Part shown: in pieces, positions 50 through 12,414 of the stretch | How positions within the stretch are numbered: the first letter of the stretch is position 1 | How the letters are laid out: every line of letters starts with the position of its first letter | Assembly (NCBI GenBank): GCA_028698185.1 | Contig: JAQVDW010000039.1 | Location: forward strand, 1 to 12,711 | Direction of reading: 5' to 3' | From: Erysipelotrichaceae bacterium | GTDB lineage: Bacteria > Bacillota_I > Bacilli_A > Erysipelotrichales > Coprobacillaceae | Length of the DNA: 12,711 bases | Translations under genes and position numbers: made by a program | The notes under the pieces: model-generated | Databases searched by the model: none | What the model was told of the DNA's origin: nothing | What the model saw: the letters and a program-made list of their open reading frames with translations, nothing else

Positions 50-167
50 GGTTATCCCACCTCTTTTTCATTATACACCTATTTTCATAGGAAAAGTCGA
101 TAAACATCGTTATGGGCTAACATAGCCAAAAATTTGCCGTCTATTGCATTTTGTTGCAAAAGTTTAA

Positions 168-194
168 GTTAATTTAACAATTCCATAGTATAAT
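168..194 (+). promoter_or_regulatory. Putative promoter region of the KAP operon: TATAAT -10 box (189-194) with palindrome GTTAATTTAAC (168-178) where a -35 would lie
   Basis: A perfect TATAAT lies about 70 nt upstream of the first ATG. There is no good TTGACA-like -35 at 16-18 nt. An 11-nt palindrome occupies that position, and a TCAACC/GGTTGA hairpin (211-229) sits in the presumed leader. Confidence 0.3.
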
Positions 195-264
195 ATCAGT
201 AGATATTTGATCAACCTTGTATGGGTTGAAGGTTTTCCATTAATCATAATATGAAGGAGTATCT

Positions 265-618
265 ATGGAACAGCAGCGTTACAAAGAATTATTGGAAATA
301 TTGAGTGATGCCTCGCGGAATGTGGCCGATCATATCGCAGCCAAAAATGAGCTGATGTTGTGGTATCAAGGGGTCCTTGAAAGCCATCCGGTCCTCAAAG
401 ATGACTTTGATCATGACAACCTCAAAGCCGTCCTGGAACAAAAGATGCAGGGGGCAAGGGTAATCGATATCGAGGGCGACATCATCGATGTCTCGCTGGA
501 ACGGTTGCTCGAGGATGCAATCGAATATTACAGCTCCCTTATGGCTTATCCCGAAGTGTATATCATGAACACTCCAATCGAACAGCTTTATCAGGATGTT
601 TATCTCTACGACAATTGA
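265..618 (+). CDS. Hypothetical acidic protein, 117 aa, no recognisable family
   Basis: ATG at 265 is preceded by an AAGGAG SD (254-259) with a 5-nt spacer. It is the first gene of a tightly spaced same-strand trio. The sequence is D/E-rich with helix-like heptad character. I recognise no motif. Confidence 0.6.
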   Translation: MEQQRYKELLEILSDASRNVADHIAAKNELMLWYQGVLESHPVLKDDFDHDNLKAVLEQKMQGARVIDIEGDIIDVSLERLLEDAIEYYSSLMAYPEVYIMNTPIEQLYQDVYLYDN

Positions 619-637
619 AAGATATGAGGTGAGACTT

Positions 638-817
638 ATGGATGATTATGAAGGTTTCGATCTCGACATCGATGAAAGCAGCGAAGATTTCAACGGTGAT
701 GATGATGATGATGACCGCGACTATGATGATGAAGTCAGCGATGAGTTTGGCGGTATGAACGACAGTTTCGACGAACTGCTTTATTATGAGTTCATCAGTG
801 ACATAATTGACAAATAA
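638..817 (+). CDS. Hyper-acidic small protein, 59 aa (27 D/E, 2 K/R; contains DDDDDD)
   Basis: I chose the internal ATG at 638 of track ORF 596-817 because a GAGGTG SD (626-631) lies 6 nt upstream. It starts 19 nt after the stop of the preceding gene and ends 16 nt before the KAP start. The low-complexity composition lowers coding certainty. Confidence 0.5.
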   Translation: MDDYEGFDLDIDESSEDFNGDDDDDDRDYDDEVSDEFGGMNDSFDELLYYEFISDIIDK

Positions 818-833
818 GAAACGGGGTGGATTT

Positions 834-2195
834 ATGGGTTCGAAAGAAAGGGACATCGGCCTGGACAATGAATTGGAAAACGACAATCTCCACCACCGGG
901 AATTCCTTGAGCATCTTACCGGGCTTGCGCTCAACCTGGCCAAAAACAGGCTGACTGGTTTCTCCAAGGTCTTCATCGACGCTCCCTGGGGTTATGGGAA
1001 AAGTTCGTTTCTCGCCCAGTTGGGTCATATTGTCAACGGCCGCTATCTTAACAACGAACCCGGGGTTGTTACAATCCTTAAAGGGCAGGATGAAAGGAAT
1101 GTCATCCACCGGATGTCGGCTTTTGGTTTCGACGCTTGTCAGCTCGACGTTTTGAACCTGCCTGAATACGAAATGGTCCTGGAAATCGTCGCGGGGGTTT
1201 CGAAGGAGCTGGGCTTTAGCGTGCATATTGACATGCTCGAGAAGACGGCCCAGGATCTAGGCCGGGTGATCACGCTGATCCAGGAAGGCCGATTCGTTCC
1301 CGAAGTGCTCAAAAGCCCGCTCCACAGCGTCAATCTCTACTCCGATGTGCTGACGGGTCGCAATATCAAATCAAGACTGAACCAGGTCATTGACGAGCTG
1401 GCGGCCTTGAACGAATGTCCTTTGTATGTGGTGATCATCGATGACATCGACCGGTGTGCGCCAGCCAAGGCAGTGCGCCTGTTGGATTTCTGCGACCTTT
1501 TCAAGGACAATCCCCACCTGCTGTTCGTGTTCGCGGGTGACCGGAGTGTCCTGGGGGCGAATATCAAGACCATTTTCGGTTCTGATTTTCCCGCCAACGA
1601 CTATCTCGACCGCCATTTTCAAGCCAGCTACAGGCTTCCAGAGCCGCCAATTGCGGGATATTGCGCCCATCTTTACGGGCTTAGGGGAAGCGCTGACCCG
1701 CTGGCCATTGCGGCGACCGTCGCGTTGGCAACCCGTCACCGCCTTGATTTGAAACAGACCCGGCACCTTGTCAATGATCTTGACATGCTCGATGCGTTCA
1801 TGCCCGATGGCCACCAGGCCGGGCCGGGATTCGTATTTGCCAAACATTTCCTGGCGGTTTGGGCCCTGACTCTCAAACACAAGAACGTTGATGAGCTCAA
1901 GACCATCATGTCGGGCCAAGGCGCCAAAAAGGATATCGAAGACATCCTGGGCAATCACAAAGAATACGCGTCATTGTTGAAATCCCGGTGCGGTTTGGCC
2001 GACAAATCGGTTGAAGATTTCAGCAAACTGGCGGATGGGTGGTACCGGGCGCTTATTGCCGGCCTGGCTGAAATGAAACTGTATCGGTCGCTTTTTGGCG
2101 AGGCAATCTTTGACGAAAAACAAGACGAGGTTGAACCGGTTCATTTTGCCGGATTTGACGGTTCGGTTTTTCTAAGAATCATGGCAACGAAATGA
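834..2195 (+). CDS. KAP-family P-loop NTPase (soluble variant, 453 aa)
   Basis: Walker A context FIDAPWGYGKSSFLAQL. Walker B context LYVVIIDDIDRCAPAKAVRLLD. Downstream sequence FVFAGDRSVL...DYLDRHFQASYRLP. All three match the KAP (PF07693-type) signature pattern as I remember it. The start is set at ATG 834 (GGGGTGGA SD at 823-830). The track start at 807 is a TTG that overlaps the upstream gene. Confidence 0.85.
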   Translation: MGSKERDIGLDNELENDNLHHREFLEHLTGLALNLAKNRLTGFSKVFIDAPWGYGKSSFLAQLGHIVNGRYLNNEPGVVTILKGQDERNVIHRMSAFGFDACQLDVLNLPEYEMVLEIVAGVSKELGFSVHIDMLEKTAQDLGRVITLIQEGRFVPEVLKSPLHSVNLYSDVLTGRNIKSRLNQVIDELAALNECPLYVVIIDDIDRCAPAKAVRLLDFCDLFKDNPHLLFVFAGDRSVLGANIKTIFGSDFPANDYLDRHFQASYRLPEPPIAGYCAHLYGLRGSADPLAIAATVALATRHRLDLKQTRHLVNDLDMLDAFMPDGHQAGPGFVFAKHFLAVWALTLKHKNVDELKTIMSGQGAKKDIEDILGNHKEYASLLKSRCGLADKSVEDFSKLADGWYRALIAGLAEMKLYRSLFGEAIFDEKQDEVEPVHFAGFDGSVFLRIMATK

Positions 2196-2245: not shown

Positions 2246-3499
2246 TCAAAGGCTGTTTACAGCCCCGATGAAAACAGGAACTTCCTGTTGGAAATCGTAA
2301 ATCATGTAGACAAACGGCCGGTCGAGAACGACTTTCTTCTCGTTGTCGATGGCGGCCGAATCAACAATTTCCACGATGGTCACGGCGCCGGCCTTGGTGC
2401 CGATCTCATTCAATTCGATCGCACAGTTGTGCAGGACCCGGTAGATAAACAGGGCCCCAGAAGCGGTAGTCGCCATTTTGGAAAAGTCGGCGATCTCGCT
2501 AAAGGCGTCCACCATGCCAAGGCTTGAAAGCAACCCGCTGAGTTCCTTTTTGTAGCCGTATTTGAATTTCGGGGTCGCGGTGGTCACCGGCAGCGCTTGG
2601 GGATTGGTGATAAGGTCATGGAGTTTCGCTCCGTCAAGTTCGCCAAGGAAAGTCGCGACGTCGGTCTTTGGCAGCAGGGCCACAAAACCGTAGCGTTCAT
2701 CCTTGTACTTCTTGACAAATCCTGTTAGCGATTCGTCTTCGAGGTAGAGGCTTTCATTGCCGTGGAGGAATTCGACTTCGCTTGTGGTGCCGTTGGCATT
2801 GGTGAAGTTGCCTTTGTAAACCATGTCGCTGGTATACTCGCTGGCCCACTGGCTTTCAAACAGGACCGTATTGATCAGATACATCACGGCCTCCAGTGGA
2901 ACCTTGTCAAGGGCTTTTTTGATCATGCCTTTGGTATGGTAGTCGATGTAGTTGTTGATGTCGTCAAGGGTGGACTGGTCAAACGGTGCCAGGTAGCCAT
3001 CGGCCCGGTAGTAGGAAGCGTTGGTCTTCAAAAATTCGGGGTTGATTGTGATCCGGTCCTGGTCGTCGCGGATCCAGATGGAATTGCTTATTTGCAGGAT
3101 CGTTTCATCGTCCAGGGAATCCAGGTAGTTTTTAAGGTCGTTGTTCAGCCGGGAAACCGGCATGTCGAGCAGCAGCTTTTCCATCTGGACGAGGGTATTG
3201 TTCGCCGCGCCGTTTTCGCACATGGCCAAGGCCAGGACGATCGACAGGGGACTGATCAGGATGTTTTCCTGGTCGGTATAAGTGTTTTTGAAAATGTCGG
3301 CGGAGAGGGTGGTGAAGCCCGGTCCGAAAGTCTCGCTGGTGGGATCCGTGGTCACGGTATCGGCTTCGACGCCCGCCATCAAGTCGGTGGCGCTTATGTT
3401 AAGGGTGGGGATGTTGTCCTTGGTGAAATAGTTGAACACAAACACAAAGACCATAATCGCACCAAGCAATCCGATGAATATTTTAGCTGTCGGTTTCAT
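2246..3499 (-). CDS. Serpin-family serine protease inhibitor with an N-terminal signal/anchor helix (417 aa)
   Basis: Serpin-like blocks are present: ENILISPLSIVLALAMCENGAANNTLVQM; the hinge and reactive-centre loop NEIGTKAGAVTIVEIVDSAA; and the C-terminal VLDRPFVYMIYD...PVFIGAVNSL. The N-terminus MKPTAKIFIGLLGAIMVFVFVFNYF is hydrophobic. A GAGGTG SD (complement of 3505-3510) lies 5 nt before the ATG. Confidence 0.9.
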   Translation of the reverse strand: MKPTAKIFIGLLGAIMVFVFVFNYFTKDNIPTLNISATDLMAGVEADTVTTDPTSETFGPGFTTLSADIFKNTYTDQENILISPLSIVLALAMCENGAANNTLVQMEKLLLDMPVSRLNNDLKNYLDSLDDETILQISNSIWIRDDQDRITINPEFLKTNASYYRADGYLAPFDQSTLDDINNYIDYHTKGMIKKALDKVPLEAVMYLINTVLFESQWASEYTSDMVYKGNFTNANGTTSEVEFLHGNESLYLEDESLTGFVKKYKDERYGFVALLPKTDVATFLGELDGAKLHDLITNPQALPVTTATPKFKYGYKKELSGLLSSLGMVDAFSEIADFSKMATTASGALFIYRVLHNCAIELNEIGTKAGAVTIVEIVDSAAIDNEKKVVLDRPFVYMIYDFQQEVPVFIGAVNSL

Positions 3500-3545
3500 T
3501 TTATCACCTCGTATTTCAAACAGCTTTTCCCATCTATCTGACTAG

Positions 3546-6949: not shown

Positions 6950-6981
6950 GTTATTGACATATGTTCAATATAATGTATACT
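6950..6981 (+). promoter_or_regulatory. Promoter P1 of the MBL-DUF5320-DUF134 operon with an embedded operator-like palindrome
   Basis: TTGACA (6954-6959), a 16-nt spacer, then TATACT (6976-6981). The 15-mer GTTATTGACATATGT (6950-6964) is identical to 9539-9553. The core ACATATGT (6957-6964) is self-complementary. Confidence 0.6.
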
Positions 6982-6992
6982 GAAGGTGTAAA

Positions 6993-7004
6993 GAACATAT
7001 GTTC
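6993..7004. promoter_or_regulatory. Second operator-like perfect palindrome GAACATATGTTC just downstream of P1
   Basis: A 12-bp perfect palindrome with the same ACATATGT core, 38 bp (core to core) downstream of the copy overlapping the -35. It sits around the expected transcription start and early leader. Confidence 0.45.
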
Positions 7005-7044
7005 AAAAAGAATTGTCGGCACTGCCGGGACGTGATGGAACAAA

Positions 7045-9538: not shown

Positions 9539-9571
9539 GTTATTGACATATGTCCATTACGGGTATAAGAT
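9539..9571 (+). promoter_or_regulatory. Promoter P2 of the flavin reductase gene, carrying the same 15-nt block as P1
   Basis: GTTATTGACATATGT (9539-9553) is identical to 6950-6964. It includes TTGACA (9543-9548), with -10 candidates TATAAG (9564-9569) or TAAGAT (9566-9571). An AAGGTG element follows the -10 at the same relative position as in P1. Confidence 0.55.
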
Positions 9572-9604
9572 AAGGTGGAAAAGAATTTAAAGGAGAAAAA
9601 ACAA

Positions 9605-10096
9605 ATGGATAAAAAAGAAGCGTTGAAAAAAGGGGCCCTTCAGCCCGCACCAAAAGTATTGGTTACCTGTCGCAACAATAAAGGCGAAGATAATGCCCTT
9701 GCGGTTGGATATTGTGGAAACTGTTCCTATGCCCCTCCGATGGTAATGGTCGGCATCGTGCCTTCCCGTTATTCTTATGAAATGATCAAGGAGTCGGGTT
9801 GTTTTGTGGTCAACCTGGTTGATGAGTCGTATCGCGAAGAGTTTGAATACCTTGGCAAGGTTTCCAAGCGCGACTGTGACAAGTTAAAAGAAAAAAATAT
9901 CCGACTTGGTGAAGGCAAGGTGGTCAATGCTCCAATTCTAAGCGATTGCCCCGTCAACATTGAGTGCACGGTTGTCGATTCGATTATGACCGGATCCCAT
10001 GAAATGTTCATCGGCAAGGTGGAGTATGTCCACGGCAACGGGGATATCGTTGATGAAAATGGTTGCATTGATTTTTCTAAAATAAATTTTTTATAA
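9605..10096 (+). CDS. Flavin reductase-like (Flavin_Reduct / split-barrel FMN-binding) family protein (163 aa)
   Basis: PKVLVTCRN.KGEDNALAVGY...PPMVMVGIVPSRYSYEMIKESGCFVVNL...DKL...NAPILSDCPVNIECTVVD...GSHEMFIGKVEYVH is typical of the family. The start is at ATG 9605, after an AAAGGAG SD (9589-9595). The track's GTG at 9575 lies at the promoter and is rejected. Confidence 0.85.
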   Translation: MDKKEALKKGALQPAPKVLVTCRNNKGEDNALAVGYCGNCSYAPPMVMVGIVPSRYSYEMIKESGCFVVNLVDESYREEFEYLGKVSKRDCDKLKEKNIRLGEGKVVNAPILSDCPVNIECTVVDSIMTGSHEMFIGKVEYVHGNGDIVDENGCIDFSKINFL

Positions 10097-10922: not shown

Positions 10923-11015
10923 TCAAGAACGCTTCACGTAACAGCGTAAATAGCAGTCAATACTAATTAATTTCTAAAAAAAAAGACCCATTAATCCGAC
11001 CTGATATCATTCATG

Positions 11016-11041
11016 GGTAGTGTCAATATTTTTGTGTAAAT
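11016..11041. repeat. IS terminal inverted repeat at the transposase 3' end: GGTAGTGTCAATATTTTTGTGTAAAT
   Basis: Matches the reverse complement of 12357-12382 at 21 of 26 positions. It is followed by an inner 13-mer GTAAAATTAGTTC (11044-11056) whose exact reverse complement occurs at 12304-12316. Confidence 0.75.
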
Positions 11042-11071
11042 TAGTAAAATTAGTTCTTCTGATGATCTTGA

Positions 11072-12271
11072 CTATTCGTCTTCCATCAGGAACCATCGCT
11101 CGTATGAGATTCCTTTGAATCCCTTGTGGGTATGGTTCATGAATTTTTGGTTATATTGCTCAAATTGCGAAACGATGTATTTTTCGGCTGCTTCCTCATT
11201 TGGAAATTGTTCCTTAGCTTTGATTTTTCGCTTGAGCTGCTTGTTGAAACCCTCAATCAGATTGGTTGTATAGATACTCTTGCGTACCGATTCAGGGAAC
11301 AAATAGAATGTGAATAGGTTCGAGTTCTATTCAAGTGATTTAGCAACTTTTAGGTATTTTTTACCCCACTTGCTTATGAATTCCTCAAGCTCTTCACTTG
11401 CTGCTTTTTCAGTTTCGCAATTGTAGACGCGTTTAAAATCCTGTGCAATCTCACTGCGGTCATTAACTCTTACTTTGGCTACAATGTTTCTTGAAACATG
11501 CACCAGGCAGCGTTGAATTTTGGCCATCGGAAAAGTGTCTTCAATGGCGTTCTCAACGCCGGTTAGTCCGTCAGTGCAAAACAAAGCAACTTCTTCCATG
11601 CCACGTGTTTTGAACTCTTCAAACAATTCCCGCCATGTTGTCGCAGATTCGGTTGGCGCAATTGAATATCCCAGTATCCCCTTTGTTCCCTCTAGAGTTA
11701 TGCCTATAGCGATATGAACTGCCTCTTTAGACACGGTATCCCGTCGCAAAGGAATGACAGTAGCATCGGTATAAACAACTGCGTATTGCTTGTTTAACGG
11801 TCGATTTTTAAAGGCTTCAACATGGGCAACTATTTCCTTGGTGATATTGGAAACAGTCTGTCTGGAGTATTTCTTGCCATAGATGGATTCAACAGTTTTG
11901 ACAATGTCACTGTTGGTCATCCCAGAATTAAATAGATCGATGACAGTGTTGGTGGTAGCCAAATCGTTTCGCTGATATTTGGGTACCAAAGGTGAATCAA
12001 AGTCACCTTGACGGTCACGGGGTATGCGCAGGTTCAACACTCCATATTTGGTATTGTAATCGCGGTTGTAATAGCCATTTCTTGAATTCGAATTCTCAGA
12101 TCGGTCGTATTTCTCGTAATCAAGAAAAACGGTAAGTTCGGACTTCAAAATATCGTTGATGGCATTCTCCAATTCGCTCCGGAATAGTTCTGAAACTACT
12201 TGCTCAAAGGCAGGGAGATTATTGTCATTTGATATTAGACTTCATAGTATTGGTGTTGTAAAATAGTTCAT
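11072..12271 (-). pseudogene. IS256-family (Mutator-type) DDE transposase, 399 codons, interrupted by two in-frame stop codons
   Basis: Track ORFs 11327-12172 and 11072-11302 are in the same frame as an upstream ATG at 12271 (GAGAGG SD). Family blocks are present: RNGYYNRDYNTKYGVLNLRIPRDRQGDF; VVYTDATVIPL (D); LFCTDGLTG (D); YTTNLIEGFNKQLKR (E). In-frame TGA at 12244-12242 (codon 10) and TAG at 11329-11327 (codon 315). Confidence 0.85.
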
Positions 12272-12356
12272 GGGTGTAATCCTCTCGTAAATTGTTTTTC
12301 GTCGAACTAATTTTACAAGGGTTACGCCCTTTTTTCTACTTAAAAGTTGAAATCCT

Positions 12357-12382
12357 ATTTACACAAAATATTTTACACTATC
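12357..12382. repeat. IS terminal inverted repeat at the transposase 5' end (reverse complement GATAGTGTAAAATATTTTGTGTAAAT)
   Basis: Pairs with 11016-11041. About 40 extra bp (12317-12356) separate it from the inner 13-mer, compared with 2 bp at the other end. Confidence 0.75.
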
Positions 12383-12414
12383 TATTAAACAGTGGGAGAA
12401 TATCTATATGTATG

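Follow-up and report, generated by a model that had tools for sequence, protein, structure and literature searches.

Members of the KAP family of P-loop NTPases have only recently been established as anti-phage proteins. Phages are blocked by single-gene KAP NTPases such as EF_KAP and metagenomic KAPs (PMC13552941) and Reve, a single-gene system from P4 hotspots (PMC13586616), and PifA has been reported as a KAP protein without transmembrane (TM) helices (PMC13001434). KAP-like defence ATPases that work with partners in multi-gene operons are found in RADAR (RdrA) and QatABCD (QatA), and PADLOC lists a candidate system, PDC-S20, which consists of a single gene for a KAP protein of ~466 amino acids (aa). 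Here we describe a 12,711-nt stretch of an Erysipelotrichaceae genome (contig JAQVDW010000039.1; hereafter the window, to which all coordinates refer), in which a gene for a soluble KAP NTPase follows two genes for small acidic proteins, designated ORF1 and ORF2, within one operon. We read this operon, with a probability of roughly 0.4, as an anti-phage KAP switch with clade-specific small acidic regulators or adaptors that has become fixed in the chromosome.

Two small acidic genes and a KAP gene form a co-inherited operon

The three co-directional open reading frames (ORFs) on the plus strand extend from 265 to 618 (ORF1, 117 aa), from 638 to 817 (ORF2, 59 aa) and from 834 to 2195 (KAP, 453 aa). 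They are separated by 19 nt (619–637) and 16 nt (818–833), respectively, and a Shine-Dalgarno-like motif precedes every ORF (GAAGGAG, GAGGTGA and GGGGTGGA), confirming the tight arrangement with a single hairpin at its end that a first-pass annotation of this DNA had described. The start of the third gene was assigned to the ATG at 834, in agreement with every homologue and its gene call in the alignment; the mechanical ORF list gave the TTG at 807. The operon ends at a bidirectional intrinsic terminator (2197–2240, both strands) that is common to the operon and a convergent serpin gene. The hairpin has 20-nt arms with 95% complementarity, a stability of -27.6 kcal/mol and a z of -6.55 (0 of 200 shuffles were as stable), and an A-run and a T-run adjoin it. 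No strong terminator is present inside the operon, as claimed before: the scan returned weak sites of 5–8 pairs, less than 2 pairs above the shuffle mean. A weak promoter-like site (9/12 matches) lies within ORF2 (759–787).

Upstream of ORF1, a block of 37 nt (AAAAGTTTAAGTTAATTTAACAATTCCATAGTATAAT, 158–194, plus strand) is near-invariant in an alignment of five orthologous loci, whereas the intergenic sequences flanking it have diverged. The block is closed by a perfect TATAAT -10 element (189–194), the remainder being AT-rich, and contains the palindrome GTTAATTTAAC at 168–178. It lacks a recognisable -35 element and was therefore not called by the consensus promoter scan. A CATAGTA sequence in the promoter resembles by inspection a -10 element of sigma-G/F type, with a poor -35 match. 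The motif is unique to the operon promoter in the window, and likewise in all loci fetched for comparison (orthologous or relative loci, named L0xx); this uniqueness and its near-invariance suggest that the block holds a site for a dedicated regulator. The first-pass annotation had taken both the palindrome and a leader hairpin as hints at regulation. The palindrome is real and belongs to the conserved block. The hairpin (UCAACC-N5-GGUUGA, 211–229, plus strand) is real as well, but not distinctive, with a z of -1.2 in the window and of -1.2 to -2.2 over the loci. It folds in the window, L001 and L003 and is thus present in 3 of 5 lineages; at this position, L004 forms another hairpin and L002 a weak hairpin. 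Since its z is not significant and it is not conserved, we rejected it as a regulatory RNA. Rfam had no match anywhere in the window.

The first 127 nt of the window are unrelated to the sister strain L023, which carries a flavodoxin_4 gene and a terminator at this place. Identity to L023 resumes exactly at position 128, where contigs L024 and L025 end too, and a minus-strand ORF begins at about position 50 (MELDKIKNDIDALNN...). This segment, 30 nt upstream of the promoter block, is probably a further mobile-element insertion or a rearrangement.

ORF1, ORF2 and the KAP gene are found in the same order and with spacers of 16–20 nt in every locus carrying either the KAP clade or ORF1, i.e. in L001–L004 and in the near-identical strains L023–L025, the whole set deriving from independent samples. 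The clade comprises about five species-level lineages of uncultured Erysipelotrichales (record labels: Erysipelotrichaceae metagenome-assembled genome (MAG) and Coprobacillaceae MAG). A search of 5.8 billion protein clusters with the KAP protein yielded eight related clusters, seven of which represent the clade itself (41–99% identity), and when 1.84 billion representatives were scanned exhaustively with HMMER, 1,136 KAP relatives emerged at E<1e-10. Only three of these reached E<1e-30 and all of them were clade members, which sets the clade apart as an isolated branch within a large family of 420–500-aa KAP proteins.

The chromosomal surroundings are conserved, too. Genes for an aldo-keto reductase, PPK2 and flavodoxin_4 are syntenic upstream, and the serpin, a small multidrug exporter, a GNAT protein, an XRE regulator and an aminotransferase follow downstream. 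The idea that the trio might reside in defence islands or prophages did not hold, as it occupies a fixed syntenic site without flanking defence genes. In each of the five lineages, GC content and third-codon-position GC content (GC3) of the KAP gene are the same as in the neighbouring genes. On this ground we rejected recent horizontal transfer of the gene, which is a long-term resident.

Both small genes are genuine and under purifying selection. ORF1 encodes an orphan protein with a pI of 4.3 and a net charge of -15, predicted to be mostly helical with a short beta-hairpin (AlphaFold2 (AF2) confidence (pLDDT) 70.8). Its orthologues are 82–93% identical and their ratios of nonsynonymous to synonymous substitutions (dN/dS), 0.06–0.07, are the lowest in the neighbourhood; as the substitutions are overwhelmingly synonymous, ORF1 must be a real protein under strong constraint. 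ORF2 is hyper-acidic (27 D/E and 2 K/R residues, net charge -25) and probably disordered. Its frame, composition and three short conserved motifs (DIDESSxxF, RD[YF]DDExSD[ED]F and YxEF) have been retained in five lineages at 49–88% identity, and dN/dS is 0.09–0.21 where measurable.

Neither protein could be assigned to a family, in keeping with the first-pass annotation: Pfam, NCBIfam, PADLOC and PHROGs gave no match for ORF1 or ORF2, and these profile scans revealed no helix-turn-helix, ribbon-helix-helix or AbrB domain in either of them. For ORF2 no family or PDB match was obtained, and for ORF1 no sequence, family or fold match outside the clade. The 5.8-billion-cluster search returned just three clusters for ORF1, and none outside the clade was detected there or in JGI metagenome contigs, IMG/VR, GenBank phages and PLSDB plasmids. 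We also considered that ORF1 and ORF2 might be split-off N-termini of longer KAP proteins. This was rejected, since searches of every fetched protein and locus by phmmer and tblastn gave chance-level matches only.

A triplet tract, (GAT)5GAC (698–715, plus strand), codes for a poly-Asp run in ORF2, which comprises 6, 8 or 9 residues (window, L024/L025 and L023, respectively), the strains being otherwise ~99% identical. Such length variation would fit replication slippage with tolerance for in-frame changes. In a Coprobacillaceae MAG (L003:7420-7772, the same locus as L005), ORF1 is split into overlapping ORFs of 60 and 57 aa by a 1-nt deletion in a variable, low-confidence linker, the halves being 75–88% identical to the window protein. 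A frameshift that arose very recently, a functional split and an assembly error are all conceivable.

The KAP protein combines a conserved core with a fast-evolving C-terminus

The third gene (834–2195, plus strand) encodes a KAP-family P-loop NTPase. Pfam PF07693 matched aa 46–270 with 52.6 bits (gathering cut-off 20; E=5.5e-14), and the signatures noted at first reading are present: DAPWGYGKSSF (aa 49–59), VVIIDDIDRC (aa 199–208) and DYLDRHFQASYRLP (aa 256–269). Both Walker motifs are intact. Walker A (DAPWGYGKS, aa 49–57; 978–1004, plus strand) contains G55, K56 and S57, and Walker B (aa 199–208; 1428–1457, plus strand) contains D203, D206 and C208, which are all invariant in the clade. The protein also matches phrog_8614. 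With PADLOC, a check proposed at the outset, the KAP protein matched PDC-S20 best (84.7 bits), followed by PifA and QatA. The PDC-S20 match is partial, and neither the small ORFs nor the neighbouring genes had any PADLOC match. In the PDB, Foldseek ranked RdrA of RADAR first (E=1e-5, probability 1.0, TM-scores 0.35–0.41).

The absence of a TM segment was confirmed. The highest Kyte-Doolittle mean over 19 residues is 1.28 (aa 329–347), the usual threshold being 1.6, and the insert at aa 105–177 is predicted to be helical or disordered, and soluble. What had been regarded as unusual is, however, common among relatives: the maximum stays below 1.6 in 114 of 147 sampled relatives of similar size, and PifA lacks TM helices as well (PMC13001434), so that a membrane-less state is normal for this KAP family. 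The most hydrophobic KAP helix is FVFAKHFLAVWALTL (1818–1880, aa ~329–350). The most hydrophobic segments of relatives lie at a similar position (aa ~320–365) and reach TM-like values of 2.0–2.4 in 6 of 147; judged from hydropathy, some family members may be membrane-associated through their C-terminal domain.

Homology to the nearest outgroup extends over residues 1–416 (hhalign of clade versus outgroup, probability 100%, E=7.7e-39). This outgroup includes a protein of Thomasclavelia spiroformis, which belongs to the same bacterial order, and the Thomasclavelia prophage clade scores 150 bits to PDC-S20. The Thomasclavelia-type relatives stand alone right at prophage ends, adjoining holin/endolysin genes and, in L027, also tRNA genes. 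More distant relatives of ~466 aa, mostly from Gammaproteobacteria, are true PDC-S20 proteins (560 bits, model positions 1–463). These, too, are encoded by stand-alone genes, next to GmrSD, the type I restriction-modification specificity subunit HsdS, AAA_21/DUF4435 or Thoeris ThsA/ThsB. A relative from a Fusobacterium phage is encoded directly beside ToxN/AbiQ, and one from a Vibrio phage near an integrase and a methyltransferase. Small acidic genes were not found alongside any of these close or distant relatives. Because the nearest relatives stand alone yet share the whole architecture, partners are not a requirement of the family. As a side observation, the outgroup carries a near-invariant [FY]xNAWEND motif, which is replaced by SAFxFDAxxLD in the window clade (1110–1136, aa ~93–101) with loss of the tryptophan.

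In contrast to ORF1, the KAP gene is the least conserved gene of the region, with 41–75% identity to the window and a dN/dS of 0.21–0.35; most flanking genes exhibit 60–95% identity and a dN/dS of 0.09–0.18. Most of the divergence falls in the C-terminal helical domain (aa ~300–453; 1731–2192, plus strand). Between the window and L001, dN is ~0.19–0.33 from aa ~300 onwards versus ~0.03–0.04 in the core, and sliding dN/dS is 0.3–0.7 in the C-terminal domain versus ~0.1 in the core. Only 11–13% of the columns are invariant in this domain. Its predicted fold is mostly confident (AF2 pLDDT 80–93, with dips to 64–72 at three spots). Positive selection on the KAP gene was rejected, as no 50-codon window exceeded a dN/dS of 0.7.

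The best-conserved part of the protein is not a catalytic motif, but a clade-specific segment between Walker A and Walker B (VPEVLKSPLHSVNLYSDVLTGRNIK, aa 155–179; 1296–1370, plus strand). This segment holds the longest invariant run of the protein (10 residues; the next longest has 4), and 69% of the columns are invariant over aa 155–183, as compared to 25% in the whole protein. Its codons differ synonymously among orthologues, and constraint therefore acts at the protein level. AF2 confidence is low here (pLDDT 32–45), and in the outgroup family the equivalent stretch has low consensus conservation. We consider the segment a candidate partner-docking site.

Other features of the window

The serpin gene (2246–3499, minus strand; PF00079, 238 bits) converges on the KAP gene at the common terminator. 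Its product has an N-terminal hydrophobic segment (IFIGLLGAIMVFVFVFNYF), which suggests a membrane-anchored or secreted protein. In L004 (10011–11269) the serpin gene has decayed into several frame-shifted pieces, whereas ORF1, ORF2 and KAP are intact, and the operon is therefore independent of the serpin.

Near its right end, the window carries an insertion sequence (IS) of the IS256/Mutator family (11010–12388) with imperfect terminal inverted repeats of 32 nt (11010–11041 and 12357–12388). Its transposase is distributed over two ORFs (11072–11302 and 11327–12172) and is probably frameshifted; several sister-strain contigs end at ~11013–11045, i.e. at the IS boundary. Strains from two other samples diverge from the window at 3514 into GGTAGTGTCAAATAGG... 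(L036:11965-11994; L043:2617-2643), which resembles the terminal repeat GGTAGTGTCAATATTT of the IS256 element, and two more contigs end at 3514. Thus, part of the population carries an IS just upstream of the serpin gene (start codon at 3499). The contigs ending at ~3514 had been fetched via an identical XRE protein and give no evidence of absence of the module; a variable KAP/serpin region, as their ends might suggest, was rejected in favour of an IS256-like insertion in these other strains.

A partly palindromic motif of 21 nt (GTTATTGACATATGTTCAATA) occurs three times. Two copies (6950–6970 and 6988–7008) are located upstream of a gene for a metallo-beta-lactamase-fold protein (7215/7251–8087) and one (9539–9559) upstream of a flavin reductase gene (9575–10096). 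The motif is a candidate for an operator common to both genes. The metallo-beta-lactamase-fold gene of L002 has a gene of the Fur family immediately upstream.

Candidate function and comparison with described systems

We favour reading the KAP gene as a divergent, chromosomally fixed representative of a family of soluble KAP proteins, the rest of which behave like products of phage-defence genes. It shares common stock with the stand-alone KAPs of 420–470 aa that reside at a prophage lysis cassette or attachment site and in proteobacterial defence islands. We consider an ATP-driven anti-phage switch the most likely role of the protein. Its conserved P-loop core would form the switch proper, and the fast-diverging C-terminal helical domain would probably set specificity by recognising a phage product. 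An immune role gains support from RdrA, the nearest solved fold, which is a defence ATPase that has a partner protein. Our best guess is that the co-transcribed ORF1 and ORF2 products regulate or adapt the NTPase in trans. Folded ORF1 might dock on the invariant KAP segment 155–179, while ORF2, as a disordered polyanion, could serve as a charge or nucleic-acid mimic which silences the NTPase or its output until infection.

The first-pass annotation had envisaged a soluble KAP NTPase working with two dedicated partners. That the three genes form a conserved unit and that both small ones are real has been borne out; the dedicated partnership finds less backing, with relatives that lack partners and co-occurrence within one lineage. 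The strongest version of the idea, an undescribed three-component immune module in which a soluble KAP sensor is controlled by, or signals through, the polyanionic pair, appears doubtful to us, and so does its detailed form, in which ORF1 would bind an otherwise disordered insert of the NTPase and ORF2 would be a disordered mimic with a poly-Asp run of strain-variable length. If true, it would provide the first case of a KAP-type defence ATPase whose built-in regulators or outputs are small acidic or mimic proteins.

Several observations weigh against the operon being an anti-phage switch with acidic regulators. All instances of the trio belong to one narrow lineage and to one site between flavodoxin and serpin, in a conserved neighbourhood without defence or mobile genes, and its linkage may for this reason reflect nothing but shared descent. 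A host-like composition of the KAP gene and the lack of any observed presence/absence variation are atypical for defence genes. None of the closest KAP relatives has small acidic neighbours, and the small proteins themselves are without informative homology or fold. Finally, the match to PDC-S20 is partial and weak (48–85 bits as compared to 560 for true members), and the literature that could be searched contained no mention of PDC-S20 itself.

The explanation that competes best holds that KAP works alone, a prophage-type KAP gene having landed in an ancestor downstream of an unrelated ORF1-ORF2 operon with which it now shares promoter and terminator. Every outgroup relative is indeed stand-alone and homologous over the full length, the very different rates of ORF1 and KAP fit different functional constraints, and the weak promoter-like site inside ORF2 could be seen in the same light. 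However, spacings of 16–19 nt without a strong terminator between ORF2 and KAP have been kept in all lineages despite saturated synonymous divergence, ORF1 was never found without KAP among ~15 billion proteins, and the clade-specific invariant KAP segment would be left in need of an explanation. We regard this explanation as possible, but would not expect it to prevail. Should the small genes prove to have no connection with KAP, the locus would be one more divergent, domesticated PDC-S20-like member from an uncultured lineage.

A non-immune role, in which KAP has been domesticated for a cellular task such as NTP-dependent assembly or regulation of a complex containing both acidic proteins, seems unlikely. 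It would account well for the strictly vertical descent of the operon, which occupies one fixed site in all recovered genomes, for host-like GC and GC3, for conserved flanks free of defence or mobile genes and for the conserved promoter block, and the conservation of ORF1, unmatched by any other gene of the region, suggests a cellular target that is itself conserved. On the other hand, KAP evolves at about twice the rate of its neighbours with divergence focused in one domain, a frameshift divides ORF1 in one lineage, strains differ in the length of the ORF2 poly-Asp run, and all informative contexts of relatives are phage- or defence-linked. A toxin-antitoxin-like addiction module, with KAP as toxic NTPase and one or both acidic proteins as antidote, is improbable: although small acidic genes precede a larger enzyme gene in one operon and the conserved promoter palindrome could mediate autoregulation, no DNA-binding domain was detected in either small protein, the supposed toxin is much less conserved than ORF1, which is the reverse of usual pairs, the locus is not mobile, and stand-alone relatives persist without antidote.

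Returning to the anti-phage switch with acidic regulators or adaptors, the rate asymmetry between the genes and the invariant insert furnish a concrete, testable hypothesis. The clade thereby offers a natural handle on the regulation of defence ATPases of the KAP type, and the locus could reveal whether polyanionic, mimic-like proteins encoded by the host serve as immune regulators.

Among described systems, PDC-S20 comes closest. It resembles the window KAP in family, length and lack of TM helices, and both have Walker A/B motifs and a C-terminal helical region in common, the link to the window clade running via the Thomasclavelia prophage intermediates. Nonetheless, the window KAP reaches its 84.7 bits in two partial stretches and its clade mates score 48–60 bits, far from the 560 of true members, and the [FY]xNAWEND signature reads FxFDAxxLD in the window clade. 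Moreover, PDC-S20 genes stand alone in variable or defence contexts, whereas the window gene always follows ORF1-ORF2 and lies outside defence islands.

The validated KAPs (EF_KAP/metagenomic KAPs, Reve and PifA) display the same order as the window protein, i.e. a KAP P-loop domain and then a region without known domain, which in these systems is essential for defence; their restriction of phages relies on Walker B. EF_KAP differs by two TM helices and a C-terminal extension of 322 aa, and PifA is far larger (720 positions in the PADLOC profile, which the window KAP matches with E=6e-10). Unlike the window operon, none of these systems has been described with small acidic partner genes. Tmn (Gao 2020), cited as a membrane KAP NTPase in the first-pass annotation, shares with the window gene that it codes for a P-loop NTPase and figures as a stand-alone anti-phage gene. 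It is now placed in the separate YobI family, with a P-loop domain that contains two TM helices, and its site of action is the membrane (PMC13001434), while the window KAP is devoid of TM helices and belongs to PF07693.

RdrA and QatA function within multi-gene operons as the window KAP may do, but their partners are enzymes (the deaminase RdrB, and QatB/C/D) rather than small acidic proteins. No RdrB or other PADLOC match exists among the genes neighbouring the window KAP, nor are QatB, QueC-like QatC or TatD-like QatD found among them. QatA models match the Walker B region of the window KAP, with 24 bits for the NCBIfam QatA model against an equivalog cut-off of 600. DNA-mimic proteins of the Ocr/ArdA/DMP type are similar to ORF1 and ORF2 in composition alone (net charges -15 and -25), without any fold match. 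Taken together, the KAP family and its association with defence were known before, and a coupling to the small genes is suggested by their co-inheritance in a single lineage; the clade-specific traits of this locus are the obligatory upstream pair of acidic genes, the conserved promoter and the invariant segment 155–179.

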